Source: Psychromonas sp.
GTDB lineage: Bacteria; Pseudomonadota; Gammaproteobacteria; Enterobacterales; Psychromonadaceae
Direction of reading: 5' to 3'
Assembly (NCBI GenBank): GCA_028041985.1
Contig: JAOFNL010000001.1
Span: 1 to 56,363 of the forward strand
Length of the DNA stretch: 56,363 nucleotides
Translations under genes and position numbers: made by a program
The notes under the pieces: model-generated
What the model was told of the DNA's origin: nothing
The model's database searches: none
Seen by the model: only the letters and a program-made list of their open reading frames with translations
Shown: positions 8,824 to 49,964 of the stretch, piece by piece
How the letters are laid out: each line of letters opens with the position of its first letter
Numbering within the stretch: position 1 is the stretch's first letter

Positions 8824-9606
8824 TTAGACGATTAATGTACTTGCATCTAATAAAGTTATATTTTGTTTTGCATTACTTGCACGACAAACGGCTACTATTT
8901 GATCATTTAAATGTCTTTGATGCAGTTGCCATTGAGTATTTTTGTTCAGAGGATAATTGTCATTAAAAAATAAGCTGACGTTATCACATGTAATGCTTGG
9001 TTGTATGTTGTCATTCGTGTTTTCATTTTGCTGGTCATTAAAGCTAAAATAAAAACTATCCAATCCAAGACTGATCCCAATACCCGTCGCTTTCACAAAC
9101 GCTTCTTTCAATGTCCAATATTCAAAAAAACGTTGTTGCTGTTTTAAACCAGATAATTGACAAAGTTTGTTATGTTCCTGTTTTGAAAAATAGCGGCGTG
9201 TTATTGGCTCAATACTGACTTTACGTAATGGATTTTCAATATCACATCCAATGTCGTCTTTTACGCATACTGCCATAATAATCAATTGATTATTATGGCT
9301 TAAGTTAAAACGGATCTTTAGTGGATTACTTTCTAACTCCGGTTTCCCATGTTGATTGCGAATAAAATGAATTTCAGAGGGAGGCAAGGAAACATATTGA
9401 GCTAACACTAAGCGACAAATAGAACGTGTAACTATCGCGGTATGTTGGGCTATTTTATTCTTAAATTGATGAATATTTTCACTTTCCGTCATGCTTAAAG
9501 TTGATTTGATCGTACTCATAGCTTTAAGGTCTAGTTTATTCGGATCAATAAACCATAAATCAATTTTATTATTTTTGAGAGCTTCTATCGAAGATGGGGG
9601 ACTCAC
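8824..9606 (-). CDS. pfaE: Sfp-type 4'-phosphopantetheinyl transferase, probable PfaE
   Basis: HGKP, FNLSH, IGCDIE and WTLKEAFVKATG motifs; the pfaA-D cluster in this window has no adjacent PPTase. Confidence 0.8.
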   Translation of the reverse strand: MSPPSSIEALKNNKIDLWFIDPNKLDLKAMSTIKSTLSMTESENIHQFKNKIAQHTAIVTRSICRLVLAQYVSLPPSEIHFIRNQHGKPELESNPLKIRFNLSHNNQLIIMAVCVKDDIGCDIENPLRKVSIEPITRRYFSKQEHNKLCQLSGLKQQQRFFEYWTLKEAFVKATGIGISLGLDSFYFSFNDQQNENTNDNIQPSITCDNVSLFFNDNYPLNKNTQWQLHQRHLNDQIVAVCRASNAKQNITLLDASTLIV

Positions 9607-30811: not shown

Positions 30812-31153
30812 AGTTATTGAGGTTCTTAAGTTTTAATAAATTAGGTGAAGAATAATACAGGAATAAAATGTGATATTCAGTCTCTGATTTGTGTGTTGGT
30901 ATTGCTTTTATCATAAATTTTTTCTGACAGTTGCTTTGCTGTAAGTAAGTATTGATAAATAACGTTTTGACCATTCATGAGTTTCATTATTTTAGTATCG
31001 CTAAAATGTGCTGAACATTTGATTTAATAGTAACTGTAATGAGTAAGTTTTATTAATCAAACAATTTAAAGTATCGGTAGATTGTATAGGGCGTGATACC
31101 TGTGTATATTGTCGAACTAACTTTCTGTTTTTATTTTGTGAATTGAATAACTT

Positions 31154-31975
31154 TTGACTGCCAAACAGCATAAGAATGCGACAACAACCCCTGAGATTCG
31201 AGCTTTTATTCGTGAATCCGAATTACCGACGGCGGTTTTAGCACGTCTATTAAAAATTTCTGAATCTACAGTGCGAAAATGGCGTCAACGCGATACTGTT
31301 CAAGATGCCTCACATACCCCTAAACGTTCCAACACAACATTAACGCTCCAACAACAATACGTTGTTGTGCAGTTACGTAACCGTTTGATGCTTTCTCTTG
31401 ATGATTTATTAAAAGTTTGTCGTCAATTTATCAATGAAAATACATCGCGAGCAGGGCTTCAACGTTGTTTAAAACGCCATGGCGTTTCTAAATTAGCGGA
31501 TATTGACCCAGCAGGTGAATTGGTGAAATTAGAGCAACAAGTGAGTGTTGCTATACAAGATAAATCGTCAGATAAAGTGACCAGTTCTGTTTTAAATCCA
31601 CAAGCTATGTTGGATGTGTTGAACCAATTGCGACTTGAAGACACCAACAATCAGCAAAGCAGTGAGTTAGCTGACCATGCTAAAACTGCAAAAACTCGTA
31701 GTTTAACCTGTGAAGATGTGGTGCAAGTCAGTGTGATCACTTTGCCTAATTTAGACAAAAAGTCAGATACAAAGATTAAACAACATCGTCTTTTGATAGC
31801 AAACGATCCAGATAGCCAATGGGTTTATGTTGATTTATATCAAGATGATGAAGCCGATGCGGCAAGACGATACATGAAACATGTATTAAAGCATGCACCA
31901 TTCCATATTCGCCGCTTATTAGCGGAAAATTATAATGAATTTTTGAGCCGATTTAGTTTATTGAATGAGCAATAA
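31154..31975 (+). CDS. pfaR: PfaR-type putative regulator of the PUFA synthase locus; IS481-transposase-like sequence
   Basis: HKNATTTPEIR...LARLLKISESTVRKWR HTH; immediately upstream of pfaA. Confidence 0.75.
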   Translation: MTAKQHKNATTTPEIRAFIRESELPTAVLARLLKISESTVRKWRQRDTVQDASHTPKRSNTTLTLQQQYVVVQLRNRLMLSLDDLLKVCRQFINENTSRAGLQRCLKRHGVSKLADIDPAGELVKLEQQVSVAIQDKSSDKVTSSVLNPQAMLDVLNQLRLEDTNNQQSSELADHAKTAKTRSLTCEDVVQVSVITLPNLDKKSDTKIKQHRLLIANDPDSQWVYVDLYQDDEADAARRYMKHVLKHAPFHIRRLLAENYNEFLSRFSLLNEQ

Positions 31976-32015: not shown

Positions 32016-35000
32016 ATGTCGAAAAATAAAACCACCAACACCGCATCAGATAAGCGTATCAACTCTCGCTTACAAGAAACGCCGATTGCAATTGTTGGTA
32101 TGGCCTCTGTTTTTGCTGAAAGTAAAAACTTAGGACAGTTTTGGGATACGATCGTTAACTCTGTTAATGGCATTCAAGATGTACCCGAAGATCGTTGGGC
32201 GATTGATGATTATTATTCAGCGGATAAAAAAGCAGCGGATAAAAGTTATTGTAAGCGTGGTGGATTTTTACCCGAAGTTGACTTCGACCCAATGGAATTT
32301 GGTTTACCACCAAATATTTTAGAATTAACTGATATTACGCAACTAATGGCGCTAGTTGTTGCTCGTGATGTGTTAGCTGATGCTGGCGTGAGTGATGAAT
32401 CTAGTTTCGATCGCGATAAAATAGGTATTACGCTTGGCGTAGGTGGCGGACAAAAACAAGGTGGACAATTAATGTCTCGCTTGCAAGGTCCGGTTTTAGA
32501 AAAAGTATTAAAAGCATCGGGTTTAAGTGATAACGATACCGATGTGATTGTTGATAAATTCAAAAAAGCGTATATCCCTTGGGAAGAGAACTCATTCCCT
32601 GGCATGCTAGGAAATGTAATTGCAGGGCGCATTGCAAATCGTTTTAATTTTGGTGGTACTAACTGTGTGGTTGATGCTGCGTGTGCAGGGTCTTTAGCTG
32701 CAATTAAAATGGCGGTATCTGATTTATTAGAATATCGCTCAGATATGATGCTGTCAGGTGGTATTTGTTGTGATAACTCACCATTTATGTACATGTCTTT
32801 CTCAAAAACACCCGCTTTCACCGATGGTGATTGCATTCGTCCATTTGATGAAAAATCTAATGGCATGATGATTGGTGAAGGTGTAGGCATGATTGCACTT
32901 AAACGTTTGGAAGATGCTGAGCGTGATGGAGACCGCATCTACTCAGTAATAAAAGGTATCGGTAGTTCGTCTGATGGTAAGTTTAAATCGATTTATGCAC
33001 CACGCCCTGAAGGTCAGTTAAAAGCATTAAAACGTGCCTATGATGATGCAGGGTTTGATCCTAAAACCTGTGGTTTGATTGAAGCACATGGCACTGGCAC
33101 TAAAGCAGGTGATGCTGCTGAGTTTAGAGGTTTAGAGTTATTATTTAGTGAGGACAATGATGAAAAGCAACATGTCGCACTTGGCTCTGTTAAATCACAA
33201 GTGGGCCACACTAAAGCAGCAGCTGGTACAGCAGGTCTTATTAAAGCAGCTTTAGCGCTACACCATAAAGTATTGCCTGCAACGATAAACGTTGATAAAC
33301 CCAATCAAAATTTAGAGATTGAAAATACACCTCTCTATATTAATACTGAAACAAGACCTTGGATGCAGCGTGCAGATGGAATTAAACGTCGTGCAGGTAT
33401 CAGTTCATTTGGTTTTGGTGGTACTAATTTCCACTTAGTTCTTGAAGAATATACACCTCGACAACATGGTGCTTACCGTCTGAATGATGTTGCTCAGTCA
33501 TTTTTATTCAGTGCCACTAACAAATCTAATTTAATTGATGAGCTAGTGAATAATTTGACTCTTTTAAAAGTAGATGTTGAATTACAACCTTATGCTTTTA
33601 ATCAGTTGATTCTTTCTTATCCTGTTAAAAAAATAGCCAAAACATACGCAAGGTGTGGTTTTGTTGCTAAAAATATTGAGCAAGCTATTCAATTTATAGA
33701 ACAAACTATTGAGCAATTAACTACCAATGAAAGTGATGCATGGTCTAAACCAAATGGCATACATTATCGCTCAAAAAGTATGGATACTCAGGGGAAAGTG
33801 GTTGCATTATTCTCAGGTCAAGGCTCGCAATATCTAAACATGGGCCGTGAACTGGTTTGTCACTTCCCAAGTATGATGGTTACACAAACAGCGATGGATC
33901 AACAATTCCATGAAGCAGGGAAACAGAGTCTTTCGAAGGTTGTTTATCCAATCCCTGTTTTTGATCAACAAGCAAGAGCTGAACAAGAATTAACACTCCG
34001 ATTGACACAACATGCACAACCTGCGATCGGTAGCTTCTCTGTTGGTTTATTTAATACTTTTAAACAAGCAGGATTTAAAGCAGATTTTTCTGCAGGACAT
34101 AGTTTTGGTGAGTTAACCGCATTGTGGGCTGCAGATGTGCTGTCAGAAGTGGATTACATGAAATTGACTATGGCTCGTGGTCAAGCGATGTCGGCACCTG
34201 AAGATCCTGAACTAGATAATGGGACTATGGTCGCTGTTATCGGTGATGTTGCAGAGATTGAATCTCGCATTGCTTCAATTAAAGGTGTGACGATTGCAAA
34301 TTATAATGCTCATAATCAAGCTGTAATAGCGGGTGAGAGTTCTGCGATTGAGAGTGCACGTACTGAATTGACTGCTAATGGTTTTAAAGTGATCACATTA
34401 CCGGTTTCTGCTGCTTTTCATACTCCATTGGTCGGGCATGCACAACAACCATTTGCGGAAGCTATCGATGCAGTGACATTTAAGAAACCTACTATCGCAG
34501 TTTATTCTAATGCAACGGGTGATATTTACAGCAATAATCCAGACGAAATAAAAGAAGAACTAAAAGATCATATCTTACAATCAGTACAGTTCAGTAAAGA
34601 GATTAAAAACTTATATGCAGCTGGTGGACGTATATTTGTAGAATTTGGTCCTAAAAATGTATTAAAGCGCTTAGTTGATAATATTTTAGAAGATAAAAAT
34701 GATGTCGTTACTATTGCTACAAATGGCAGTGCTAAAACATCTTCAGATTTACAAGTACGTTTAGCCGCAATACAATTAGCTGTTTTAGGACTTGAGTTAA
34801 ACACTATTGATCCATACTCCGCAGTCGCTCGTCCTACTGTTGCCCCTCAAAAATCGCCATTAGCGATGAAACTTTCTGGCGCTTCTTATGTTAGCCCAAA
34901 AACTAAAAAAGCATTTGCAGATACTTTAACTGACAACTGGAAAATCTCTAGTGATCATTCAACACAACCTGCAGTGAAGGAAGTGATAAAAGAAGTGGTT

Positions 35001-38000: not shown

Positions 38001-39878
38001 GCTGCCGACAGAGTTGCTAACTTGGTTATTCGAGAGCTAAACGATAAAAAAATTAGGCCTGTTGAGGTTGGATTTAATACAAAAGGGCGTTTAACCTTAG
38101 TCACTAAAAGCACTGATAGTTATTCACTAGATGCAGGAAACTCCATTGATAAAGACTCTGTGTTTCTCGTCAGTGGTGGCGCTAAAGGTGTGACGGCACA
38201 TTGTGTAGTGGAGATTGCTAAACAATACCAATGTAAGTTTATTTTGTTGGGCCGCTCTGAGTATAAAGAAAATGAACAGAGTTGGGCTTCACCACATGAT
38301 TCAGAAGACGCTTTGAAAAAAGCGGCTATGCAGTTTTTATTAGACAACGGTGAAAAGCCTAATCCTAAATGGATTAAAAGATTAGTAAGTGAAGTACTTT
38401 CTAATCGAGAAATCAGTCAAACATTACAAAAAATCGAAGATGAAGGTGCTATTGCTGTTTATATTTGTGCAGATGTGTGTGATAAAACCGAGCTTACAGA
38501 AGCTATCAAACCGATTTGTGAGAGATGGGGAACGATAACGGGAGTAATACATGGTGCTGGCGTATTAGCTGACAAATATATTGAACAAAAGACATTGCTT
38601 GAATTTGAACAAGTTTATAATACTAAAGTGGATGGTTTAGATGCGCTATTAGCTTGTTGCGATTTAGAACGATTGGATCATTTGGTTCTATTTTCTTCTG
38701 CTGCTGGTTTTTATGGCAATCCAGGCCAATCTGATTATGCGATTGCAAACGAAATTTTAAATAAAACAGCCTATCGTTTTAAGTCTTTGTATCCGAAATG
38801 CCAAGTATTAAGTTTCAACTGGGGACCATGGAACGGTGGAATGGTTACTCCAGAATTAAAACGCATGTTTGATGAGCGTGGGGTTTATATCATCCCCGTT
38901 CAATCAGGTGCGACGCTATTAGTGCATGAATTAACTGCGAACAATAATCGTTGTGTTCAAATCGTAGTAGGTACGGATATGTCTGGTAATAACAATAGCG
39001 AAGAAACTATTGAGAACAGTAGCTCTAAGCCATTATCAAGTAGTGTCGTGAAAGTGTTTAATACCGACAAGAGCTCTTTACTTAAAGATCATAAAATTGA
39101 TGGTTTTCAAGTATTACCAACTGTCTGTGCTATTGCATGGATGCAAAATGTTTGTGAAGATCTTTATCCTGATTACAAATATCAAGGATTTGAAGAGTTC
39201 AAACTATTTAAAGGTATTGTTTTTGATGGTAGTCAGGCTAAAGAATTTTTAATTGACACTAAACTGGTTCAAGATTCTGAGGATTCATTGTGTGTAGAAG
39301 TACTAGTAAGTAGTGAAAAAGAGAAGGGCAAAACTTTCTTCCATTATCGCGCTTTAGTTAATTTATCAAATAAAAAACCTGAAATGTTAATTTATCAAGA
39401 ATCTTTACCATCATTGGTGAAAACGGTATCTCCTGAGGTTTTGTCGCTTTATCGTGATGGAAGTTTATTCCACGGTGAAAAATTTCAAGGCATTAAGCAC
39501 ATTCATCAAATTAATGAAGCAGGAATGCTACTAGAGTGTGTCATTGACCAATCAGTTTTAAAATCTCAAGGTGAATTTTTACTTGTTGAAAATAATGTAT
39601 TGGCTAATGATTTGGTTTATCAAGCATTGTTAACTTGGACTAGTAAATATATTGGTCAAAGTAGCTTACCGAGCAGTACAGATGCTTGGGAAGTATTTCG
39701 TGAAGTCAAAATAAATGAATATTTCTTTGTTAAGTTAACAATCTCTAAACAAGTTGGACAACGAGTTATTGGTGATTTGTTAATAATCGATAAAAATCAC
39801 AATATCATCAGTAAAGTGACTGCAGCAGAAGTTACATGCAGTCCAACACTAAAAGATATATTCAAGGCTAATGCATAA
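32016..39878 (+). CDS. pfaA: PUFA synthase PfaA (KS-MAT-ACPx6-KR-DH)
   Basis: DAACAGS, EAHGTGT (KS); GHSFGE (AT); six LGIDSIKRVE ACPs; SGGAKGVT and YAIAN (KR); likely start ATG 32016 after GGAGA (ORF opens at 31965). Confidence 0.96.
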   Translation: MSKNKTTNTASDKRINSRLQETPIAIVGMASVFAESKNLGQFWDTIVNSVNGIQDVPEDRWAIDDYYSADKKAADKSYCKRGGFLPEVDFDPMEFGLPPNILELTDITQLMALVVARDVLADAGVSDESSFDRDKIGITLGVGGGQKQGGQLMSRLQGPVLEKVLKASGLSDNDTDVIVDKFKKAYIPWEENSFPGMLGNVIAGRIANRFNFGGTNCVVDAACAGSLAAIKMAVSDLLEYRSDMMLSGGICCDNSPFMYMSFSKTPAFTDGDCIRPFDEKSNGMMIGEGVGMIALKRLEDAERDGDRIYSVIKGIGSSSDGKFKSIYAPRPEGQLKALKRAYDDAGFDPKTCGLIEAHGTGTKAGDAAEFRGLELLFSEDNDEKQHVALGSVKSQVGHTKAAAGTAGLIKAALALHHKVLPATINVDKPNQNLEIENTPLYINTETRPWMQRADGIKRRAGISSFGFGGTNFHLVLEEYTPRQHGAYRLNDVAQSFLFSATNKSNLIDELVNNLTLLKVDVELQPYAFNQLILSYPVKKIAKTYARCGFVAKNIEQAIQFIEQTIEQLTTNESDAWSKPNGIHYRSKSMDTQGKVVALFSGQGSQYLNMGRELVCHFPSMMVTQTAMDQQFHEAGKQSLSKVVYPIPVFDQQARAEQELTLRLTQHAQPAIGSFSVGLFNTFKQAGFKADFSAGHSFGELTALWAADVLSEVDYMKLTMARGQAMSAPEDPELDNGTMVAVIGDVAEIESRIASIKGVTIANYNAHNQAVIAGESSAIESARTELTANGFKVITLPVSAAFHTPLVGHAQQPFAEAIDAVTFKKPTIAVYSNATGDIYSNNPDEIKEELKDHILQSVQFSKEIKNLYAAGGRIFVEFGPKNVLKRLVDNILEDKNDVVTIATNGSAKTSSDLQVRLAAIQLAVLGLELNTIDPYSAVARPTVAPQKSPLAMKLSGASYVSPKTKKAFADTLTDNWKISSDHSTQPAVKEVIKEVVVEKIVEKLVYVDSTGKPIANQPIQTATAGASSVLESVEQFIKHQSQLLAVHQSYLDGPNRYVDTFKAVLAAQAGQQKLPEGLDKTLAMYHDFQTETLRVHETYLNNQTNNMQQMLDNVSGVQVSTASSQRLQVPSAVNPINLQQQLQATHQTVQNAKSESVNISKITATNDLQFIENKMLSVVAEKTGYPIEMLELSMDMEADLGIDSIKRVEILGAVQDDISDLPELDAELLSQMRTLAQIVAYMNEVMDKAGVHPQNVISSHTSANATIQFDSEAIEKVMLQVVADKTGYPTEMLELSMDMEADLGIDSIKRVEILGAVQDEIDNLPELDAEQLSQMRTLAEIVDYMNHVMSSVNSNVTSSTMAEPSSIDIKAIESVMLNVVADKTGYPTEMLELSMDMEADLGIDSIKRVEILGAVQDEITNLPELDAEQLSQMRTLAEIVTYMNEVAATVSSISLAVNTVVESKVNQNTVSQDNFISATSVIDTQLIESIMLAVVADKTGYPTEMLELNMDMEADLGIDSIKRVEILGAVQDEISNLPELDAEQLSQMRTLAEIVAYMNEVAANEPTTTQGSKVNESIKTLADNIIDVELIERTMLSVVAEKTGYPIEMLELNMDMEADLGIDSIKRVEILGAVQDEINNLPELDAEQLSQMRTLAEIVGYMNEVATTEPTATLDPNVSEPVNTSADNAIDVELIGRTMLSVVSDKTGYPTEMLELNMDLEADLGIDSIKRVEILGAVQDHITNLPELDAEQLSKMRTLAEIVNYMNEVQGTKASSNIPVFVEPTVSEMSPDIVEAESVVEFSPAPSSIVEIKQLAAIECMDSRVTNKNMLLVNDGQGSCVYIANNLSQLGWNVVVITPSWIERATTKIFNDGIININLSDITESALKDILITKSEWQSVIYLHPKSEVFGIQFETQYKKGLQLAFLLAKLSKLNQNNNETRSSFLVLTRQGGDFATNNIEKKSDLVQGGLAGLVKTLDHEWDNVFCRIIDIPSLYAADRVANLVIRELNDKKIRPVEVGFNTKGRLTLVTKSTDSYSLDAGNSIDKDSVFLVSGGAKGVTAHCVVEIAKQYQCKFILLGRSEYKENEQSWASPHDSEDALKKAAMQFLLDNGEKPNPKWIKRLVSEVLSNREISQTLQKIEDEGAIAVYICADVCDKTELTEAIKPICERWGTITGVIHGAGVLADKYIEQKTLLEFEQVYNTKVDGLDALLACCDLERLDHLVLFSSAAGFYGNPGQSDYAIANEILNKTAYRFKSLYPKCQVLSFNWGPWNGGMVTPELKRMFDERGVYIIPVQSGATLLVHELTANNNRCVQIVVGTDMSGNNNSEETIENSSSKPLSSSVVKVFNTDKSSLLKDHKIDGFQVLPTVCAIAWMQNVCEDLYPDYKYQGFEEFKLFKGIVFDGSQAKEFLIDTKLVQDSEDSLCVEVLVSSEKEKGKTFFHYRALVNLSNKKPEMLIYQESLPSLVKTVSPEVLSLYRDGSLFHGEKFQGIKHIHQINEAGMLLECVIDQSVLKSQGEFLLVENNVLANDLVYQALLTWTSKYIGQSSLPSSTDAWEVFREVKINEYFFVKLTISKQVGQRVIGDLLIIDKNHNIISKVTAAEVTCSPTLKDIFKANA
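35521..37315 (+). repeat. Six tandem ACP-domain repeats within pfaA
   Basis: Six copies of V(A/S)(E/D)KTGYP.EMLEL.MD.EADLGIDSIKRVEILGAVQD separated by variable linkers. Confidence 0.92.
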
Positions 39879-42528
39879 AATGTTATCGGTGATAGGTTTA
39901 GATGTCAGTTTTGATACGGTAAAGGATATCGATGCATTCGATTATCACCTTTACCGTAATAAACCTATCACGCTGACAACAGAAAATAATGATAAACAAG
40001 CAGTTGATAATACAATAAGTTTAATTAATCGTTTACTCAGAAATTTTTACCATCTTGATGACAATCATCACAGCGAGGTGTCACTAAGTGGTGTGGTTAT
40101 GTGCTCTGGTGTGGTTTCAAATATTGGTAAGCAAGAAAACGTTGAACCGGGTTCATATCAATCATTTAATCATACTCTGCAAGCACAGAGCCAAGACAAA
40201 CTGAGCGTCACTTTTAGGAATAGGGCTAGTGAACTTAATGATGCTTTAGAGCAAGCCTCTAGATTGAGTGTTGAATCTCATTTACCCGTTGTTGTTGTAT
40301 GCGAAAACCAACCCATTCTAGATGGAGTGGCTGCCTTATTGGTTTGTGATAAAGAGGTATTGAATGAAACTCAACTATCAACAAGTGTTCACTTTCATCA
40401 ATATGCTGAAATAAATGTGTGCTCGTCAATTCCTTTATTGGATATTAAACAAAACCAAAATGACGTAAGCAAACATATTCAACAATTGTTATTCGATAAT
40501 AAGTTAATCACTGAGCAGATTGAGTCTCTTTTCACTTATCAGCATGATAGATCCGCAATCTTTTCAAGAAGATTACATCACAATAGCTGTTTATCTGCTT
40601 ATCAGGAAATGACCACTTTAAACAACAATGTGGATCCACAAATTAAAAGCAATTCAGCAAAAGCTATCCCAAGTACTTTGTTGTCAGAAGTCGATATTAT
40701 TAAATTTGAATCTGAAAATTTTAATACCTTACTTTCATTGATCGCCGCGAGTTTATGTTTAGATCAACGTTATCGTTTAGGTTCGAAACAGGATCTTTTT
40801 AGTGAAGAAATAACGGCAGATATAGATAATATCGGCAAATCTAATTATTTTTATTGCTTATCTGACTCTACTAGTTATTTGCCTAATAAAGAGACATTAC
40901 CTCGAAACATTTTACTCAGCCATTATTTAACTGGCACGGAATGTTTACCTTCTGATAAAACAGAGATGATAAATGACTCTCATCAGTTATTTTTATTGTC
41001 TGAAGCTAAAGATCAAAGCACTGTTACCAATGGCTTTTTAAAGCAGCAGAAAACAAAACCAGTGATCTTTACCGCATCGAGTATTAGTCAATTACTTGTT
41101 TCGTTACGACATGGGCTCGATCAATCGTCCTTTGATACGAGTAATCGCGTAGACTTCATTACATTATGTGAACAGCAATATCAGCAATATCAAGATCAGA
41201 TAAAAGATAAAACCTTATTAGGGTTTTACTGTGTTGTGTTGGTGGCTTCTTGTTTAAACACCTTAGCCAATCAGATTCGGTCTGCAATTTCTGCAATTGA
41301 AAAAGAATGCGATGAAAGTGCAGATGTCGCAACTACGTCTGGTGTCATCAAGCCGTGGAAAACACCTGCAGGTAGTTATTTTAGTGGGCAATTGATAAAT
41401 AAAGCTGAAATGCAACTTCCTTTAAGTTTTATCTACCCAGGGGTAGGTGCTTTGTACGTGGGGATGGGAAAAGACTTATTACGTTTATTTCCTGAATGCT
41501 TTGAGCATTTATTAAGTATTTCTGATGATTTAAATCATAGCTTGCAAGATCACTTAATAACACCGCGTTTATTATCGAAACCGAATTTCAACATGCTAGC
41601 TAAAAAAGAAAAACAATTAAGAGCTGAATTAGCCAATATTGCCGAAGCAGGAGTCAGCTATGCTTGTTTGTTAACGGCCATATTTCAGCATCAATTTCAG
41701 TTAAAGGCGACCTCTGCTGCAGGTTACAGTATGGGTGAAGTCAGTATGTTTGCGGCATTAGGTTGTTGGGATGCACCGCATGTCATGAGTCAGCGGTTAC
41801 AAGAAAGTCCTATTTTCAAAGAACAGTTATCAGGTTCATTAAAGCGATTAGATAAAAACTGGAATGATGGTGAAACTGCACAATGGGAGTCGTATCACTT
41901 AAAAGCTGGGATAATGCAGGTTGAGCCATTACTTGCTCAGTTTCCAAAAGTTTATATCACTATCATCAATACACCAGAAAGTTTAGTGATTGCAGGAGAA
42001 CCATCTCAATGTCTTGCATTAGCTAAGTGTTTGTTGCTACGTGCCATTGCACTAAATGTTCCTAATATTATTCATTGTCCATTGGCTAAAAGTGAATATG
42101 AGAATATGTTACAACTTTATTCACTGCCAGTTAAAGATAAAATCAGTTGTCAGTTTTTTTCTAGTTCATGTTATTTACCCGTTCCTATTACCGAAAAAGC
42201 CATTGCGGTAAGTATTAGTAAATGCCTAACAGAACAAGTAGATTTCCCTCGATTAATAGAAAAACTTGCTTCAACAGGTGAACGAGTTTTCATTGAAATG
42301 GGAGCCGGGAAATCGCTAAGCACTTGGGTTGAAAGAATATTAAAAGACAATCCTATATCGATTACTAGTTTATCGGTGAATCAAAAAAATTTAGATGATT
42401 ACAGTGCTATTTTAAAAACCATTACACCACTAATCAGCCTTGGTTATCACATCAATTTACAGTCTTTTTTTAATGGTTCGCTTGTACGTCCCGTTAAACA
42501 AAGCACTGTTTCAGTCTTAGTATCATAG
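39871..42528 (+). CDS. pfaB: PUFA synthase PfaB (degenerate KS-like region plus acyltransferase)
   Basis: WKTPAGSYF, FIYPGVG, AGYSMGE, VDFPRLI, FIEMG; position between pfaA and pfaC. Confidence 0.9.
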   Translation: MHKMLSVIGLDVSFDTVKDIDAFDYHLYRNKPITLTTENNDKQAVDNTISLINRLLRNFYHLDDNHHSEVSLSGVVMCSGVVSNIGKQENVEPGSYQSFNHTLQAQSQDKLSVTFRNRASELNDALEQASRLSVESHLPVVVVCENQPILDGVAALLVCDKEVLNETQLSTSVHFHQYAEINVCSSIPLLDIKQNQNDVSKHIQQLLFDNKLITEQIESLFTYQHDRSAIFSRRLHHNSCLSAYQEMTTLNNNVDPQIKSNSAKAIPSTLLSEVDIIKFESENFNTLLSLIAASLCLDQRYRLGSKQDLFSEEITADIDNIGKSNYFYCLSDSTSYLPNKETLPRNILLSHYLTGTECLPSDKTEMINDSHQLFLLSEAKDQSTVTNGFLKQQKTKPVIFTASSISQLLVSLRHGLDQSSFDTSNRVDFITLCEQQYQQYQDQIKDKTLLGFYCVVLVASCLNTLANQIRSAISAIEKECDESADVATTSGVIKPWKTPAGSYFSGQLINKAEMQLPLSFIYPGVGALYVGMGKDLLRLFPECFEHLLSISDDLNHSLQDHLITPRLLSKPNFNMLAKKEKQLRAELANIAEAGVSYACLLTAIFQHQFQLKATSAAGYSMGEVSMFAALGCWDAPHVMSQRLQESPIFKEQLSGSLKRLDKNWNDGETAQWESYHLKAGIMQVEPLLAQFPKVYITIINTPESLVIAGEPSQCLALAKCLLLRAIALNVPNIIHCPLAKSEYENMLQLYSLPVKDKISCQFFSSSCYLPVPITEKAIAVSISKCLTEQVDFPRLIEKLASTGERVFIEMGAGKSLSTWVERILKDNPISITSLSVNQKNLDDYSAILKTITPLISLGYHINLQSFFNGSLVRPVKQSTVSVLVS

Positions 42529-42537
42529 AGAGTATTT

Positions 42538-45500
42538 ATGGAAAACATCGCCATTGTTGGTATCGCTAATTTATTTCCTGGTTCTAATGCTCCAGAAGCA
42601 TTCTGGGAGCAATTATTACAACAAAAAGATAATAGAACCCAAATTACTGATCTCGAGTTAGGTGTGGATCCTACTGAATATTTAGGTAAAAAAGGTGAAA
42701 GTGACAAATATTATTGCCTTTATGGCGGTTATATTCGAGACTTTAGCTTTGATGCCTCTGAATATTTCACTGATGCTACGGCAAGCCATCTCTCTGTAAA
42801 TGATTTAAATAAATTGGATGACTTGCATCAATGGTCTCTATATGTAACGAAATGTGCTTTACAGGATGCAGGATATTGGCAAAGTGAAAAACTACAAGAT
42901 TGTGGATTAATCTTAGGTAATTTGTCTTTTCCCACTAAACAATCAAACCATCTTTTTTTAGATACCTATCGACATGTTGTTGAACTTGCCTTACAGCAAA
43001 CTTTGCATAATGAATTAACTATTAATGCTTTTGCGGACCAGTTAAACGTTTCACCTGAAAATGCACTAGTAGCAGGTTATCCTGCAGCATTATTAGCTCA
43101 GGTGAATGGTCTAGGTGGGAGTTACTTTGCATTAGATGCTGCCTGTGCCTCATCCTGTTACAGCGTGAAATTAGCCTGTGATTATTTGCAAACAGGCAAA
43201 GCCAATATGATGTTAGCAGGTGCTGTTTCGGCTGCTGACTCTTTATTTGTTAATATGGGTTTTTCTATTTTTCAAGCCTTTCCTGAGAATAATCGTCATG
43301 CACCGTTTGATATAGATTCACAAGGACTTTTCGCTGCACAAGGTGCTGGGATGATGGTTCTAAAGCGACATAGTGATGCCATTAAAGACGGAGACCATGT
43401 TTATGCGGTTATTAAAGGTGGTGCTTTAACCAATGACGGTAAAGGTGAATTTGTTTTAAGCCCTAATAGTAAAGGGCAAGTTCTGGCTTATGAACAAGCT
43501 TATAAAAATGCACAGGTTGACCCGAAGTTTATCGATTATATCGAATGTCACGCAACAGGTACTCCAAAAGGTGATAAAGTTGAATTTAGCTCAATGGAGC
43601 AGTTTTTTAGTCAATATGAACACAAACCTTTATTAGGATCTGCTAAATCTAACCTTGGACATTTGTTAACCGCCGCGGGTATGCCTGCGATGACAAAAGC
43701 TATTTTTGCTTTAAATGAAAAAATCATTCCAGCAACAATTAATGTTGATAACGCAATTGTTACTGCACAAGGTTATTTCTCTGGCGATCAAATCCCTACT
43801 AGCAATGTGCAATGGCCTGAACATGATCATCAAGCGACTGCTGGGGTAAGTGTATTTGGTTTTGGTGGTAGTAACGCTCATATTGTATTGCAAGCAGGAG
43901 ACACACCTTTCATTGAAAATGATCTGCAAGTAAATGACGTGCAAGGTTTATCGATAGTGGGCATGGACTGCCATTTTGGTTCAATTGATAATGTGACTGA
44001 CTTTCAACAATTTTTAAACAACCGTGATATAGCCGAAAAAAATTGTTTTATGGACTTACCAGAACAGCGTTGGCAAGGTATTGACCAACAGAATTCTGTT
44101 TTGAACAAAGCTGGATTAAATAAAGCACCTAAAGGTAATTATATTAGTGAATTTGATATCGATTTTTTACGCTTTAAAATCCCACCCAATGATCAAGATA
44201 GTTTAATTCCACAACAATTGTTGATGATGAAAGTCGCCGATAATGCGGCTAAAGATGCAAAGTTAAGTGAAGGCTCGAATGTTGCTGTTTTAGTCGCAAT
44301 GGGACTAGAGTTGGACTTGCACCAATATCGTGGCCGTGTAAATTTATTTTCCCAAATTAAACAAAGCTTTATCGACCAAGGTATTGAACTATCAGCAGAT
44401 CAATTAACAGAACTGACTGAAATTAGTAAACAAAGTATTAATGAGCCAGCTCAATTGAATCAATATACAAGCTTTATTGGTAATATTATGGCTTCTAGAA
44501 TATCTGCTTTATGGGACTTTAACGGACCCGCTTTTACCGTTTCTAGTGAAGAAAACTCAGTCTATCGTTGTGTTGATATTGCTGATAATCTGTTTAAAAC
44601 CAGTGATGTTGAAGCAGTCATCATTGCCAGTGTTGATCTTGCTGGTAGTTTTGAGAACATTTCACTTAGACAGCGTTTTAATCCCGTGAGTGAAAATGCA
44701 GAAGTTCAAACTACACCTGATCAGCAATCACATTGGTTAGTTGGAGAAGGTGCTGGTGCGATAGTGTTAAAACCTAGAAATCATAAACAAATGGTTTCAG
44801 ATGCTGCTGTATATGGTCAAATCGAATCTTGTGTGTTTTCACCTAATAGAGGGCAGCAAAGTAACGAACAAATTGCGAATCGTGCATTACAGCAAGCAGG
44901 TTTAAAAGTAGAACAGATATCTCAAGTTGAGTCTTTTGCTGCGGGTGATGAATTGCAATTAGCAACAGAGCAGCAGGCCTTATCAACCGTTTATGAAAAT
45001 GCTCAGTTTGTATCATCCAAACAGCTAGTCGGACATCTATATAATGCTTCTGGAATGGTGAGCCTTATTGCAAGTGTATTAGCAACTAAACAATCAATCA
45101 CTAAAGCAGGTGATGCGCCACGTTATGTTGCGATCAATGGTCTAGGTTTGGATAACAGTATTGCGCATTTAATAGTCTCCAATGTGAATGCGACTAAACA
45201 AGTCGGGTCTTTGGCTAGCAGTGATACATCGGTGGTTAAAAAGTTAAGTTTGATTAAAACGGTTAAATTAGGTGGAAAATCCATTTATGATTCAATTTGT
45301 TCTGAACGTAATAATCCAAATTTTCTTCAAGTGAAAGCACTGCTTAATAATAAATTTAATCCTGTCGAGATTCTAACCACTAGTGAAGCTAAGTCACTCG
45401 CTGTGCAAAGTAATGGTTTATTTGATAGTGTGAGCCGAGAAATCACTCAGCTCAATGAAACGCATCAAGCATTTTTACGTGCGAGATTTATTGCAGAGCA

Positions 45501-48318
45501 ACAAATTGCAACGTTAATAAAATTACAGGCGCAAACTTCGATTGATAGTGATCTAAATGCAACTAATAACATTCATTTGCCACTAAGTGGTGTCGCTGTA
45601 TCTTCAAATGTTGTTTCAATTCCTATCTACGGGCAAACGGGTTACATCTATCCTGATTTACGACTCACTGAGCAGTTCAATCAACCATCTAAGGTGATAT
45701 TTGATACGCAAGCTTTGGTTGAATTTGCAGAAGGGGATATTGCTAAAGTGTTTGGGGATGAATATAAAATAATTGATAGTTACTCTCGTCGCGTTCGTTT
45801 ACCAACCACTGATTATTTGTTAGTAAGTCGAGTCACAGAGCTTAATGCTAAAACGCATAAATTCACAAAAGCGTCGATGTTTACTGAATATGATATTCCA
45901 TTAGATGCTCCATTTTTAATTGATGGGCAAATCCCTTGGTCAGTCTCTGTTGAATCTGGTCAATGTGATTTAATGTTAATCTCTTATATTGGTATCGATT
46001 TCCAAAACAAAGGAGAGCGGGTTTATCGTTTATTAGATTGTGAATTAACTTTCCTTGAAGAGATGGCGTTTGGTGGCGAAACATTACGTTATGAAATCCA
46101 TATCGATTCTTATGCTAAAAATGGTGAGCAACTATTATTCTTCTTCCATTACGATTGTTTTGTTGGTGATAAAAAAGTACTGATCATGCGGAACGGTTGT
46201 GCAGGTTTCTTTACTGATGAAGAACTTGCAGACGGAAAAGGGGTGATTGCAACATCTACTGATAAAGCACAATTTGATGCAGCAGTTAAATCAACTTTCA
46301 CACCATTAATTTTCAATGATAAGACACAATATAATTATCAAGATATGTTGAAATTAGTACATGGTGATATCAAAGGTTGTTTTGGTGATAATTATGATCA
46401 ACAAGGTCGTAACCCCTCGTTAAAATTTTCATCTGAAAAATTCTTGATGATTGAACGAATTACCAACATTGATAAAAATGGCGGTCATTGGGGACTAGGT
46501 CTTTTAGAAGGACAAAAAGATCTTGCTCCTGAACATTGGTATTTCCCATGTCATTTTAAAGATGATCAAGTAATGGCTGGTTCATTAATGTCTGAAGGTT
46601 GTGGCCAGATGGCGATGTTCTTTATGCTTTGGTTGGGCATGAACGGACAGACCAATAATGCTCGTTTTCAACCCATGGCTGGCGAAGCACAAACAGTCCG
46701 TTGTCGAGGTCAAGTAACTCCACAACACAATACTTTAACTTATCGCATGGAAGTGACAGATATCGGTATGTTACCAAGGCCTTTCATCAAAGCGAATATT
46801 GATATTATTCTTGATGGTAAAGTGGTGGTTGATTTTAAAAACTTATGTATGGAAATTAAAGAACAAGATCAAGCTAGCCCATACCCTGTTACCTTACCGA
46901 ATAACGTTGTTTTGATTGATGATGTTAATAAGAACACTCAAACAATAGATAATAATATTGCAGAGCAATTATCACAGGTTGAAGTCATCAATGAGACTCC
47001 TCTTGCTTCAGAAGAAGAGCTTCAAGTTATTGATGAACGTGGTATTAGACCATTTATGCATTCTGAAAGACCTTTAATGCGTGTTGAGTCAGATTTTACA
47101 GCACCAACAAATAAAGGCGTGATACCTATTCAGCACTTTGTGGCACCTATGATTAAAGGTCAAAATAGAATACCAGATACAGTACCTTTTACTCCTTGGC
47201 ACTTATTTGAATTTGCAACGGGTGATATTAGCAATTGTTTTGGTAATGACTTTGATGTTTATAAGGGCAGAACGCCCCCTAGAACGCCTTGTGGTGATTT
47301 GCAGGTCGTAACGCGTGTGGTAGACGTTAAAGGCCAGCGTATGGACTTTAAATCACCTTCTAGTTGTATTGCAGAATATGTTGTTCCAGAAGATGCATGG
47401 TATTTTACTAAAAACAGTAGCGAAGACTGGATGCCATATTCTTTGTTAATGGAAATTGCATTACAGCCAAATGGTTTCATTTCAGCCTATATGGGAACGA
47501 CTTTAAAATATCCTGATAAAGATCTTTATTTCCGTAATTTAGATGGGCATGGAGAATTAATTAAGAATATAGATTTACGTGGTAAAACCATTGTTAATAA
47601 ATCAGTTTTATTATCGACAAGTATGGCGGGTGGGGCGATTATACAAACCTTTAGTTTTGACTTAAGTGTTGATGGTGAAACTATCTATCATGGTGGCGCT
47701 GTGTTTGGTTATTTCAGTGCCGAATCGTTAACTAATCAATTAGGTATCGATAATGGGCAAGTGACTCAACCTTGGTTCGTTAATAATGATACTTCTTATG
47801 AAAATATTAAGATTATTGATTTAGGAGATACCGCTTTATCATTCTATGAGCAACAACCTGAGAAACCGGGATATCGATTGGCTGGTGGGCAATTAAATTT
47901 TGTCGATAAAGTTTGCATTGTAGAAGGTGGCGGTGACCATGGCGTTGCTTATATCTATGGAGAACGCACCATTGACCCAAGTGATTGGTTCTTCAGATAC
48001 CATTTCCACCAAGATCCTGTTATGCCAGGTTCATTAGGTGTCGAAGCGATCATTGAATTATTACAATGTTATGCATTAAGTAACGATTTAGGTAAGCAAT
48101 TTATTAATCCTCGATTCGTTGCTTCAACAACAAAAGTATTGTGGAAATATCGTGGTCAAATTACGCCGTTGAATGAGCAAATGAGTTTAGATGTGCATCT
48201 GACAAACATTATTATTACTGACTCTGAAGTTCGGTTAGTAGGGGATGCTAACCTATCTAAAGATGGTTTACGTATTTATCAAGTAAAAGATATTGTACTC
48301 AGTATTGTTGAAGCTTAA
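42538..48318 (+). CDS. pfaC: PUFA synthase PfaC (KS-CLF-FabA-type DH domains)
   Basis: DAACASS, ECHATGT; second KS-like domain with SSEENS in place of Cys; FPCHFKDDQVMAGSL and FRYHFHQDPVMPGSL. Confidence 0.95.
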   Translation: MENIAIVGIANLFPGSNAPEAFWEQLLQQKDNRTQITDLELGVDPTEYLGKKGESDKYYCLYGGYIRDFSFDASEYFTDATASHLSVNDLNKLDDLHQWSLYVTKCALQDAGYWQSEKLQDCGLILGNLSFPTKQSNHLFLDTYRHVVELALQQTLHNELTINAFADQLNVSPENALVAGYPAALLAQVNGLGGSYFALDAACASSCYSVKLACDYLQTGKANMMLAGAVSAADSLFVNMGFSIFQAFPENNRHAPFDIDSQGLFAAQGAGMMVLKRHSDAIKDGDHVYAVIKGGALTNDGKGEFVLSPNSKGQVLAYEQAYKNAQVDPKFIDYIECHATGTPKGDKVEFSSMEQFFSQYEHKPLLGSAKSNLGHLLTAAGMPAMTKAIFALNEKIIPATINVDNAIVTAQGYFSGDQIPTSNVQWPEHDHQATAGVSVFGFGGSNAHIVLQAGDTPFIENDLQVNDVQGLSIVGMDCHFGSIDNVTDFQQFLNNRDIAEKNCFMDLPEQRWQGIDQQNSVLNKAGLNKAPKGNYISEFDIDFLRFKIPPNDQDSLIPQQLLMMKVADNAAKDAKLSEGSNVAVLVAMGLELDLHQYRGRVNLFSQIKQSFIDQGIELSADQLTELTEISKQSINEPAQLNQYTSFIGNIMASRISALWDFNGPAFTVSSEENSVYRCVDIADNLFKTSDVEAVIIASVDLAGSFENISLRQRFNPVSENAEVQTTPDQQSHWLVGEGAGAIVLKPRNHKQMVSDAAVYGQIESCVFSPNRGQQSNEQIANRALQQAGLKVEQISQVESFAAGDELQLATEQQALSTVYENAQFVSSKQLVGHLYNASGMVSLIASVLATKQSITKAGDAPRYVAINGLGLDNSIAHLIVSNVNATKQVGSLASSDTSVVKKLSLIKTVKLGGKSIYDSICSERNNPNFLQVKALLNNKFNPVEILTTSEAKSLAVQSNGLFDSVSREITQLNETHQAFLRARFIAEQQIATLIKLQAQTSIDSDLNATNNIHLPLSGVAVSSNVVSIPIYGQTGYIYPDLRLTEQFNQPSKVIFDTQALVEFAEGDIAKVFGDEYKIIDSYSRRVRLPTTDYLLVSRVTELNAKTHKFTKASMFTEYDIPLDAPFLIDGQIPWSVSVESGQCDLMLISYIGIDFQNKGERVYRLLDCELTFLEEMAFGGETLRYEIHIDSYAKNGEQLLFFFHYDCFVGDKKVLIMRNGCAGFFTDEELADGKGVIATSTDKAQFDAAVKSTFTPLIFNDKTQYNYQDMLKLVHGDIKGCFGDNYDQQGRNPSLKFSSEKFLMIERITNIDKNGGHWGLGLLEGQKDLAPEHWYFPCHFKDDQVMAGSLMSEGCGQMAMFFMLWLGMNGQTNNARFQPMAGEAQTVRCRGQVTPQHNTLTYRMEVTDIGMLPRPFIKANIDIILDGKVVVDFKNLCMEIKEQDQASPYPVTLPNNVVLIDDVNKNTQTIDNNIAEQLSQVEVINETPLASEEELQVIDERGIRPFMHSERPLMRVESDFTAPTNKGVIPIQHFVAPMIKGQNRIPDTVPFTPWHLFEFATGDISNCFGNDFDVYKGRTPPRTPCGDLQVVTRVVDVKGQRMDFKSPSSCIAEYVVPEDAWYFTKNSSEDWMPYSLLMEIALQPNGFISAYMGTTLKYPDKDLYFRNLDGHGELIKNIDLRGKTIVNKSVLLSTSMAGGAIIQTFSFDLSVDGETIYHGGAVFGYFSAESLTNQLGIDNGQVTQPWFVNNDTSYENIKIIDLGDTALSFYEQQPEKPGYRLAGGQLNFVDKVCIVEGGGDHGVAYIYGERTIDPSDWFFRYHFHQDPVMPGSLGVEAIIELLQCYALSNDLGKQFINPRFVASTTKVLWKYRGQITPLNEQMSLDVHLTNIIITDSEVRLVGDANLSKDGLRIYQVKDIVLSIVEA

Positions 48319-48329
48319 AGAGAATTCCA

Positions 48330-49964
48330 ATGACAAAACACATAAATAAAACACTTATTGAAATCAACAAAGCCAATATTGATTGGAGTTGGCAAGTCGA
48401 AGTTCCTGAATTAAAAAACGATGAACAAAGTATTAAACAAGCATTATTGTCGATAGATAAACCTCTTTATCTTGCCGATAAAGACGGGCATTTAAGTGTT
48501 TGTCATCAATTAGCAACGACCAAAGCAGAAGAATTAACATCTGTGCTTGGTTTTGCACAAGCAATTAAAGCAGAAGATCTCGGCTGCGATGAATTTAAAA
48601 AAGCTCATGGTGTTAAATATGCCTATCACGGCGGTGCAATGGCTAATGCAATCGCCTCAGTTGAATTAGTGATTGCATTAGGGCAAGCAGGTTTTTTATG
48701 CTCATTTGGCGCTGCAGGATTAATTCCTGATGTTATTGAAGATTCTATTAAACGTATTCAAAGGGCATTACCTAATGGGCCTTTTGCTGTTAATTTGATT
48801 CATGCCCCAAGTGAAGAAGCATTAGAGTCAGGTGCAGTAGAGCGGTTTTTGAAACTCGGTGTGCGTACAGTTGAAGCCTCTGCATTTTTGGGCTTAACTG
48901 AGCATATTGTCTATTATCGGGTGGCAGGATTGTCACAGAATGCTGACGGCTCGATTAATATTCAAAATAAGGTGATTGCAAAAATTTCACGCACGGAAGT
49001 CGCTGAAAAGTTCATGTCACCAGCCCCACAAAAAATCCTAGATAAGCTGCTCGCGGCAGGAAAAATAAGTGCACTTCAGGCAGAACTTGCCTTACAAGTA
49101 CCTATGGCAGATGATATTACCGCCGAAGCTGATTCTGGTGGACATACAGATAACCGTCCATTTTTAACCTTGTTGCCTACTATTATTCAACTGCGAGACC
49201 AAATTCAATCTAAATATAACTATGTGGTACCGCTTCGTGTTGGTGCGGGTGGCGGTATTGGAACACCAGAATCGACTCTGGCTGCATTTAATATGGGTGC
49301 GGCGTATATTGTATTAGGTTCTGTAAATCAAGCATGTATTGAAGCAGGAGCATCAGAACATACAAGAAAATTGTTAGCTAATGTTGAAATGGCAGACGTT
49401 ACCATGGCTCCTGCTGCAGATATGTTTGAAATGGGGGTAAAACTACAAGTAGTAAAACGTGGTTCGATGTTTGCTATGCGTGCTAACAAACTTTATGAGT
49501 TATATAGCAGTTACCCCAGTATTGAAGCTATTCCAGTTATGGAGCGCGAAAAAGTTGAGAAACAAATATTTCGTCAAAACTTAGATCAAGTATGGGAAAC
49601 CACGATGGCTTTTTTCCATGAGCGGGATCCTGAAATGTTAGCAAGAGTTAAAGATGATCCGAAACGTAAAATGGCTTTAATATTCCGTTGGTATTTAGGT
49701 CTTTCTTCCCGTTGGTCAAATATAGGTGAAAAAGGACGTGAAATGGATTATCAAATTTGGGCCGGCCCTAGTTTAGGTGCATTTAATAGTTGGGTTAAAA
49801 ACAGCTATTTAGCTGATTTTGATCAACGCAAAGCGGTAGATGTAGCGTTACACCTTTTAACTGGAGCGGCTTATTTAGTGCGTGTTAACCAACTTAAATA
49901 CCAAGGTGTTTCAATAGATAGTGGTTTATTAAGTTATCGACCTGAAAAAAGATTGTACAGTTGA
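48330..49964 (+). CDS. pfaD: PUFA synthase enoyl reductase PfaD
   Basis: GAMANAIAS, EADSGGHTDNRP, MAPAADMFEMGV, DYQIWAGP. Confidence 0.96.
   Translation: MTKHINKTLIEINKANIDWSWQVEVPELKNDEQSIKQALLSIDKPLYLADKDGHLSVCHQLATTKAEELTSVLGFAQAIKAEDLGCDEFKKAHGVKYAYHGGAMANAIASVELVIALGQAGFLCSFGAAGLIPDVIEDSIKRIQRALPNGPFAVNLIHAPSEEALESGAVERFLKLGVRTVEASAFLGLTEHIVYYRVAGLSQNADGSINIQNKVIAKISRTEVAEKFMSPAPQKILDKLLAAGKISALQAELALQVPMADDITAEADSGGHTDNRPFLTLLPTIIQLRDQIQSKYNYVVPLRVGAGGGIGTPESTLAAFNMGAAYIVLGSVNQACIEAGASEHTRKLLANVEMADVTMAPAADMFEMGVKLQVVKRGSMFAMRANKLYELYSSYPSIEAIPVMEREKVEKQIFRQNLDQVWETTMAFFHERDPEMLARVKDDPKRKMALIFRWYLGLSSRWSNIGEKGREMDYQIWAGPSLGAFNSWVKNSYLADFDQRKAVDVALHLLTGAAYLVRVNQLKYQGVSIDSGLLSYRPEKRLYS

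Follow-up and report, generated by a model that had tools for sequence, protein, structure and literature searches.

PfaR at the head of the pfa operon: a truncated IS481-type transposase descendant and a candidate operator that matches a transposon end

INTRODUCTION

What kind of protein heads the pfa operon, and where might the site through which it acts have come from? The operon is used for EPA/DHA production, and the knockout reports on its first gene, pfaR, conflict: the title of Wei et al. 2023 (PMC10132093) names PfaR a positive regulator, whereas a passage of 10.1101/2020.01.28.924217 has EPA reportedly unchanged after deletion of pfaR in S. piezotolerans WP3 (data not shown there). 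The latter, where it discusses PfaR, matches the protein to no regulator class. In its passages on PfaR, Wan 2016 (PMC4744452) models the protein on the Mu transpososome (with MuA as the template), notes that the DDE residues are not conserved, and treats it as a regulator, not an active transposase. A dead-transposase origin and a regulatory role of PfaR are already in print, and Wei et al. 2023 may also mention the transposase link.

Here, we follow up a sequence-only reading of a 56,363-nt stretch of Psychromonas sp. DNA (the window; contig JAOFNL010000001.1 of GCA_028041985.1, a source assembly that is 51% complete), which took the first gene of the operon for a domesticated, catalytically dead IS481-family transposase. 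What our analysis adds is the IS481-subgroup donor, the half-core anatomy, a selection test, and a candidate operator matching a transposon end. Our literature search found no paper joining IS481 with PfaR or pfaA; the sections of PMC4744452 and 10.1101/2020.01.28.924217 that concern PfaR contain 0 occurrences of an IS481 donor and describe no truncation, selection test, or binding site for it, and PfaR is not discussed in the main text of a paper on Shewanella regulons (PMC3223726).

RESULTS AND DISCUSSION

The pfa locus

The ORF in question is pfaR, which heads the pfa operon directly before pfaA (Table 1). Between the pfaR stop and the likely pfaA ATG lie 40 nt, in which a scanner found no terminator-like site. 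The nearest named relatives of the window's PfaR are Psychromonas proteins (76 to 87% identity); identity is 59 to 63% to the Colwellia-named P0071 and P0112 and 44% to P0123, from a Shewanella cluster. The Shewanella and Colwellia PfaR is the same gene as that of the window, likewise situated directly upstream of pfaA and likewise bearing an N-terminal helix-turn-helix (HTH). At some other loci (L029, L030, L035, L041, L050, and L053), pfaE is the divergent neighbor of pfaR.

TABLE 1 Features of the pfaR region and the pfa genes in the window
Feature	Position	Strand	Remarks
pfaE-like phosphopantetheinyl transferase	8824-9606	-	21 kb away from the pfa cluster
PfaR box AGTATCGGTAGATTGT, predicted PfaR operator	31070-31085	+	16 bp; matches terminal inverted repeat (TIR) positions 6-21, without the terminal TG
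Putative weak sigma-70 -35 hexamer (3/6)	31082-31087	+	Overlapped by the box; below scanner threshold
Inverted half-copy of the box's first half	31094-31100	-	In the -35/-10 spacer
Putative -10 hexamer (5/6)	31105-31110	+	17 nt after the -35; below scanner threshold
pfaR ORF	31154-31975	+	273 aa, TTG start
Two-HTH DNA-binding region, PfaR residues 1-116	31154-31501	+	dN/dS 0.042
Linker plus net 56-aa insert, residues 117-187	31502-31714	+	Predicted hairpin/helices, low confidence; dN/dS 0.125
Truncated integrase-core remnant, residues 188-273	31715-31975	+	Three strands, one helix, dead second-Asp region; dN/dS 0.088
pfaA	32016-39878	+	Longest ORF from 31965; likely ATG at 32016 after GGAG; TIGR02813 over cut-off
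pfaB	39871-42528	+	Passes NCBIfam cut-off
pfaC	42538-48318	+	Called from position and size only
pfaD	48330-49964	+	Passes NCBIfam cut-off

IS481 ancestry and truncation of PfaR

The best NCBIfam match of PfaR is the IS481 transposase model NF033577 (E = 4.2e-24), which aligns residues 18 to 267 with profile positions 8 to 207 of 284 at a score of 85.6 bits, below the 224-bit cut-off of that model. The closest transposases belong to one subgroup, the donor subgroup hereafter, which we define as IS481-family (NF033577) transposases with an N-terminal HxNAxTTP motif (e.g., L043/L074 and P0176). Against the intact DDE transposase of locus L074, residues 1 to 267 of PfaR show 33% identity (BLASTP, E = 1e-36). 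The motifs quoted in the sequence-only reading are all found in the translation of the ORF, and its view that the N terminus follows the IS481 DNA-binding region is upheld: the N-terminal half alone matches L074 at an E value of 2.3e-40, and residues 3 to 120 are 46% identical to a subgroup transposase.

The C-terminal half, which had been read as an integrase-core remnant, requires a family profile to be linked to transposases, a Pfam scan of this half alone having returned no rve match. Run against 3191 ORFs, a profile built only from the C-terminal half (residues 186 to 268) recovers L074 (E = 8.8e-19) and a further transposase (E = 5.9e-7), with the best unrelated own-genome ORF at 1.3. 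An hhalign comparison of PfaR with an IS set, itself picked by similarity to the query, gives a probability of 100 over 215 columns. In structural comparisons, the top matches of the C-terminal model (pLDDT 61) are retroviral integrase cores (residues ~52 to 130), all of them weak (Z ≤5.1; the best with Z 5.1, rmsd 3.3, and 76 aligned residues); Foldseek gives an E value of 0.12. With the full PfaR model, Foldseek returned no match at E ≤0.001 (its top ranks are the Mos1, IstA, TnsB, and MuA transposases), and generic HTH matches dominate the VIA-align output. From the sequence and profile matches, we regard descent of both halves of PfaR from one IS481 subgroup as almost certain.

Relative to L074, PfaR differs in three respects. 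First, it carries an insert; the ~75 aa originally assigned to it prove too many, as the net insertion is only 56 aa and the ~72-aa spacer takes in the ancestral linker. Second, the alignment stops at about residue 220 of 324, leaving PfaR ~100 residues shorter and without the region of the catalytic Glu, in agreement with the earlier claim that the protein ends before this residue. Third, Ser193 (codon at 31730) and Glu258 (codon at 31925) occupy the positions of the first and second catalytic Asp, as had been proposed from the letters alone. These two residues are peculiar to the lineage of the window's PfaR: both columns vary freely among 126 homologues (K39/N34/S29/Y18/D3 plus 3 others in the first; G62/A33/K14/R9/D3/E2 plus one V and two gaps in the second), with Asp in only three sequences at each. 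By these alignments, PfaR is a C-terminally truncated and, as predicted from its residues, catalytically dead descendant of an IS481-subgroup transposase. The AlphaFold model of the core remnant comprises three strands, a helix, and then another helix. What PfaR keeps is probably one half, the first, of the RNase H fold, so that the sequence-only reading was right about a remnant but not about a whole inactive core. Among 39 sequences, the C-terminal alignment contains 18 invariant columns, many of them aromatic.

In common with the donor subgroup, PfaR has the two-HTH N terminus and the initial half of the integrase core. The spacing is similar too, as an end-like box precedes pfaR by roughly the distance that separates the subgroup's IS end from its gene (see below). 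Unlike the subgroup, it lacks D/D/E, is ~100 residues shorter, and has the 56-aa insert, while its locus has no TG tip, no right end, and one fixed position. Compared with an active IS481 element, PfaR scores below the model cut-off and is without DDE. Active elements have inverted repeats with TG...CA tips at both ends (IS481-type end features as given in the relevant section of PMC10045372) and vary in position or occur in several copies, whereas the pfaR locus retains the inner part of one end only and is a single fixed one.

Distribution, selection, and phylogeny

Among 301 genomes of the order, 56 matched the PfaR search, of which seven do not contain pfaR (G018, with two intact IS copies; G151, with one dead copy; and five genomes of family f20). 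In the remaining 49 genomes, which span six family codes, pfaR occurs at one locus directly before pfaA (49/49), always as an open frame without stops (42 loci confirmed on DNA and 7 from coordinates; the G165 assembly splits the locus over two contigs). The genes upstream of pfaR differ between genomes. Conversely, pfaA is present in 64 of the 301 genomes, 17 of which are without pfaR. One locus in the same genus (L146; G256:C1:3363800-3367500) has neither pfaR nor the box, and its pfaA is in two open frames.

Across 12 close loci, dN/dS of pfaR is 0.075 with dS above 1 (Nei-Gojobori; 56 of 66 pairs unsaturated). Values for families f26 and f6 are 0.047 and 0.19, from few pairs, and intact IS copies also have a low dN/dS (0.094, one pair). 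pfaR is under purifying selection, which is strongest on the HTH region, followed by the core and the insert (Table 1). The sequence-only reading had allowed for two outcomes against it, namely, a C-terminal half without similarity to rve/RNase H and a strain-specific ORF free of purifying selection; neither is what we find, and profile, tree, synteny, and dN/dS results support its claims of IS481 origin, catalytic death, and domestication.

In a careful tree of 40 rows, which left out long dead-DDE rows, PfaR groups with two basal PfaR-like proteins (100/99), and this clade falls among 29 rows (87/89) to which 6 of 20 intact transposases do not belong, a nesting with moderate support; in a quick tree of 88 rows, the position of PfaR is an open fork. 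The two basal proteins, P0126 and P0125, share the truncation and have little or no insert, and the insert-less P0126 looks like an intermediate between the IS and PfaR.

A conserved box upstream of pfaR matches the transposon end

An alignment of 12 pfaR upstream regions contains one near-invariant block of ~40 nt. A blind Gibbs search of 24 upstream regions from six family codes recovered a 16-bp motif, AGTATCGGGTGATTGT, in 23 of them, and in the 24th the box is present further upstream. This motif matches the consensus of the donor subgroup's TIRs at positions 6 to 21, GGTCCCGGATGATTGT (32 terminal repeats from 17 elements). When the blind motif is run over whole elements, 7 of 16 have the top match at an end, exactly at offset 5, and in the other 9 it lies elsewhere; column-shuffled motifs reach this register 0.35 times on average, and 0 of 300 reached 7. 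An end ranks among the top 3 of ~2100 positions in 13/16 elements.

In the reverse direction, a matrix trained only on the 32 IS ends matches the box at p < 0.05 in 36 of 44 pfaR loci and is not significant in 8; its score for the window's own copy is low (8.7 bits, rank 245 among sites of the genome). Compared at the same offset, ends of other IS481-family elements (mean -24, n = 24) are on a par with random sequence (-28), versus -1 and +2 for the left and right ends of the subgroup. All of these counts overstate independence, since the loci, like the IS copies, are related to one another. The distance from the box to the codon of a conserved His is 88 to 121 nt in close relatives, and that from the IS end is 99 to 126 nt. 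On this evidence, it is very probable that the box is derived from, or equivalent to, an IS end.

The terminal TG is absent beside the box in 23 of 23 loci. The sequence-only reading, which overlooked this left-end-like box, had seen no right end, and we likewise found none between 31700 and 32300, where the best site (7.2 bits) lies within pfaA.

The box is present at 36/36 pfaR loci (23 of them scored leave-one-out) and was found within 600 nt of pfaA at none of 16 pfaR-less loci (from 16 of the 17 such genomes; 12 of the 16 belong to one family). Since the pfaR promoter itself includes the box, finding the box together with pfaR is no proof of binding. A second copy in direct orientation is present at most f6 loci, and at L035 and L036 an exact copy in inverted orientation faces the divergent pfaE; these additional copies are not accompanied by the -10. 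Upstream of the window's pfaE-like gene, there is no convincing box. In the window's genome, the box is the top-scoring site, and the six next-best box sites that we checked are all coding. A search of 31 genomes of the genus gave 53 matches, of which 30 were examined; the 11 non-pfaR sites among these all lie in long ORFs. As the examined matches away from pfaR lie in coding sequence, no wider regulon is supported.

The box overlaps a predicted promoter

Relative to a predicted sigma-70 promoter, the box extends from about -48 to -33 and is centered near -41, which is the position of a class II activator. A TAnnnT element follows the in-box -35-like hexamer by 17 nt in 23/23 training loci versus 0/17 IS left ends. 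Conservation across families includes the 12 bases of the box that precede the -35, and the inverted half-copy in the spacer is conserved in Psychromonas and variable elsewhere. Wei et al. 2023 reportedly mapped a conserved promoter of the sigma-70 type ahead of pfaR; the -35 and -10 elements described here may therefore be published already. Two loci (L038 and L039) have a separate palindrome just upstream of the box, which we take to resemble a FabR-type site.

A proposed origin of the regulator and its site

Together with the general layout of DDE elements, in which cleavage takes place at the repeat tip and the HTH domains of the transposase bind the repeat interior, these features suggest the following scenario. 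An IS would have landed ahead of an ancestral pfaA and then lost its right part (the catalytic Glu and the right end) together with the cleavable tip of its left end, with both HTHs of PfaR still able to read the interior of the repeat. The promoter would have been created by a -10 hexamer 17 nt behind the weak in-box -35, given that the examined IS left ends have none there. PfaR at the box, centered near -41, could then help RNA polymerase at the weak -35, resulting in positive autoregulation of pfaR-pfaABCD, and the half core plus insert may serve as a structural or signal-receiving module.

Because the HTHs and the repeat interior are kept, the site is in a class II position, and the -35 is poor, we infer that PfaR binds and activates. 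Direct binding to the box is, as predicted from sequence, probable, and, given binding, activation instead of repression is highly probable. The combined proposal, that PfaR binds a 16-bp transposon-end remnant at the box and mainly activates the pfa operon, we consider reasonably likely. We lean slightly toward the broader view that, in marine Gammaproteobacteria, a bacterial DDE transposase was domesticated jointly with its end sequence, the two forming an activator and operator that control omega-3 synthesis, and that the IS481 subgroup has repeatedly seeded regulators in this way.

PfaR could also be domesticated yet act elsewhere or indirectly, the box being an inherited promoter element or the site of another regulator. 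We judge this unlikely. The box does overlap the predicted -35 and always travels with the pfaR promoter, and other regulators of pfa promoters exist (PfaF), but the 12 bases preceding the -35 are conserved in different families, additional copies of the box in either orientation lack a -10, constraint is highest in the part of the protein predicted to contact the end (HTH, 0.042), and the published PfaF footprint is, by eye, unlike the box.

Somewhat less likely again is that PfaR binds the box and represses, in negative feedback of the kind that transposases can exert at their own left end. Overlap with the -35 and an inverted half-site within the spacer would suit a repressor; a weak -35 with a site centered near -41 fits activation, as does the term positive regulator in the title of Wei et al. 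2023 (PMC10132093).

The C-terminal remnant might instead be the main retained function (sensing of a ligand, acyl carrier, or temperature, or oligomerization), with DNA binding secondary; the sequence-only reading had pointed in this direction with its possible roles in dimerization or ligand sensing. Purifying selection on the core remnant (0.088) and the invariant, often aromatic columns of the C-terminal alignment speak for some such role, but half of the RNase H fold is absent, the HTH region is twice as constrained, and pfa transcription is unchanged under cerulenin according to the relevant passage of Wan 2016 (PMC4744452), which together make this reading improbable.

Finally, the idea that the ORF is a strain-specific decaying IS without host function retains practically no probability: it scores against the IS481 model, and the intact IS pair has a similarly low dN/dS, but it has no DDE, and its fixed, open locus in 49/49 genomes of six family codes, together with purifying selection (dS above 1), refutes it.

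Comparable systems

If PfaR binds the box, the pfa locus would be a clean example, from bacteria, of a transposase and its end giving rise in a single step to a regulator and the site it reads, and the box would be both a precise candidate operator and an evolutionary reason for that operator. Three sets of known proteins invite comparison.

(i) CSB-PGBD3 (PMC3459987) and the PIF/Harbinger-derived proteins (PMC11893794) are domesticated transposases of eukaryotes that bind what is left of the elements they came from. They share with PfaR the reuse of a transposase DNA-binding domain for host regulation (predicted in the case of PfaR), whereas PfaR is bacterial and tied to one operon, with its site inside a predicted sigma-70 promoter.

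(ii) TldR (10.1101/2023.11.30.569447), a nuclease-dead TnpB, is like PfaR a bacterial transposon protein turned transcription factor after catalytic loss. It is an RNA-guided repressor, whereas PfaR comes from a DDE transposase and is predicted to read DNA through its HTHs.

(iii) PfaF of Photobacterium profundum SS9 (10.1101/2020.01.28.924217) is a positive regulator at a pfa promoter, as we propose for PfaR, but belongs to the TetR family, responds to acyl-CoA, is unlinked, and is unrelated in sequence.

Other DDE-less members of the subgroup

The match between box and transposon end suggests a route to predicting the operators of other dead IS481-type proteins, several of which appear in our data. 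In f20, 5 of 19 genomes (L045:4247-5071 and L046 to L049) carry, at a fixed position divergent from genes for a PTS EIIC, asparaginase-2, and an M17 peptidase, a second DDE-less protein derived from the donor IS481 subgroup. Its dN/dS is 0.23 (0.12 for the N terminus), a conserved AATCTCAnnnGATT site lies ~50 nt upstream, and it is likely another domesticated regulator. One box-like site in f20 was discounted, as it is coding sequence of the divergent gene. This derivative has no DNA match in an E. coli collection. The f20 family and PfaR are apart in the quick tree, and the careful one unites them (80/59) along a long branch.

Two further observations concern single proteins and clusters. At L044 (G151:C5 near 46100-46414), a DDE-less subgroup protein directly follows a Ser/Thr kinase gene and is also near a gene that is FHA-like by eye. 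P0185 (459 aa), P0134, P0135, P0164, P0168, and P0172 are full-length, DDE-degenerate subgroup members, among which P0185 has an added C-terminal part; one member of the P0185 cluster is named a MarR regulator.
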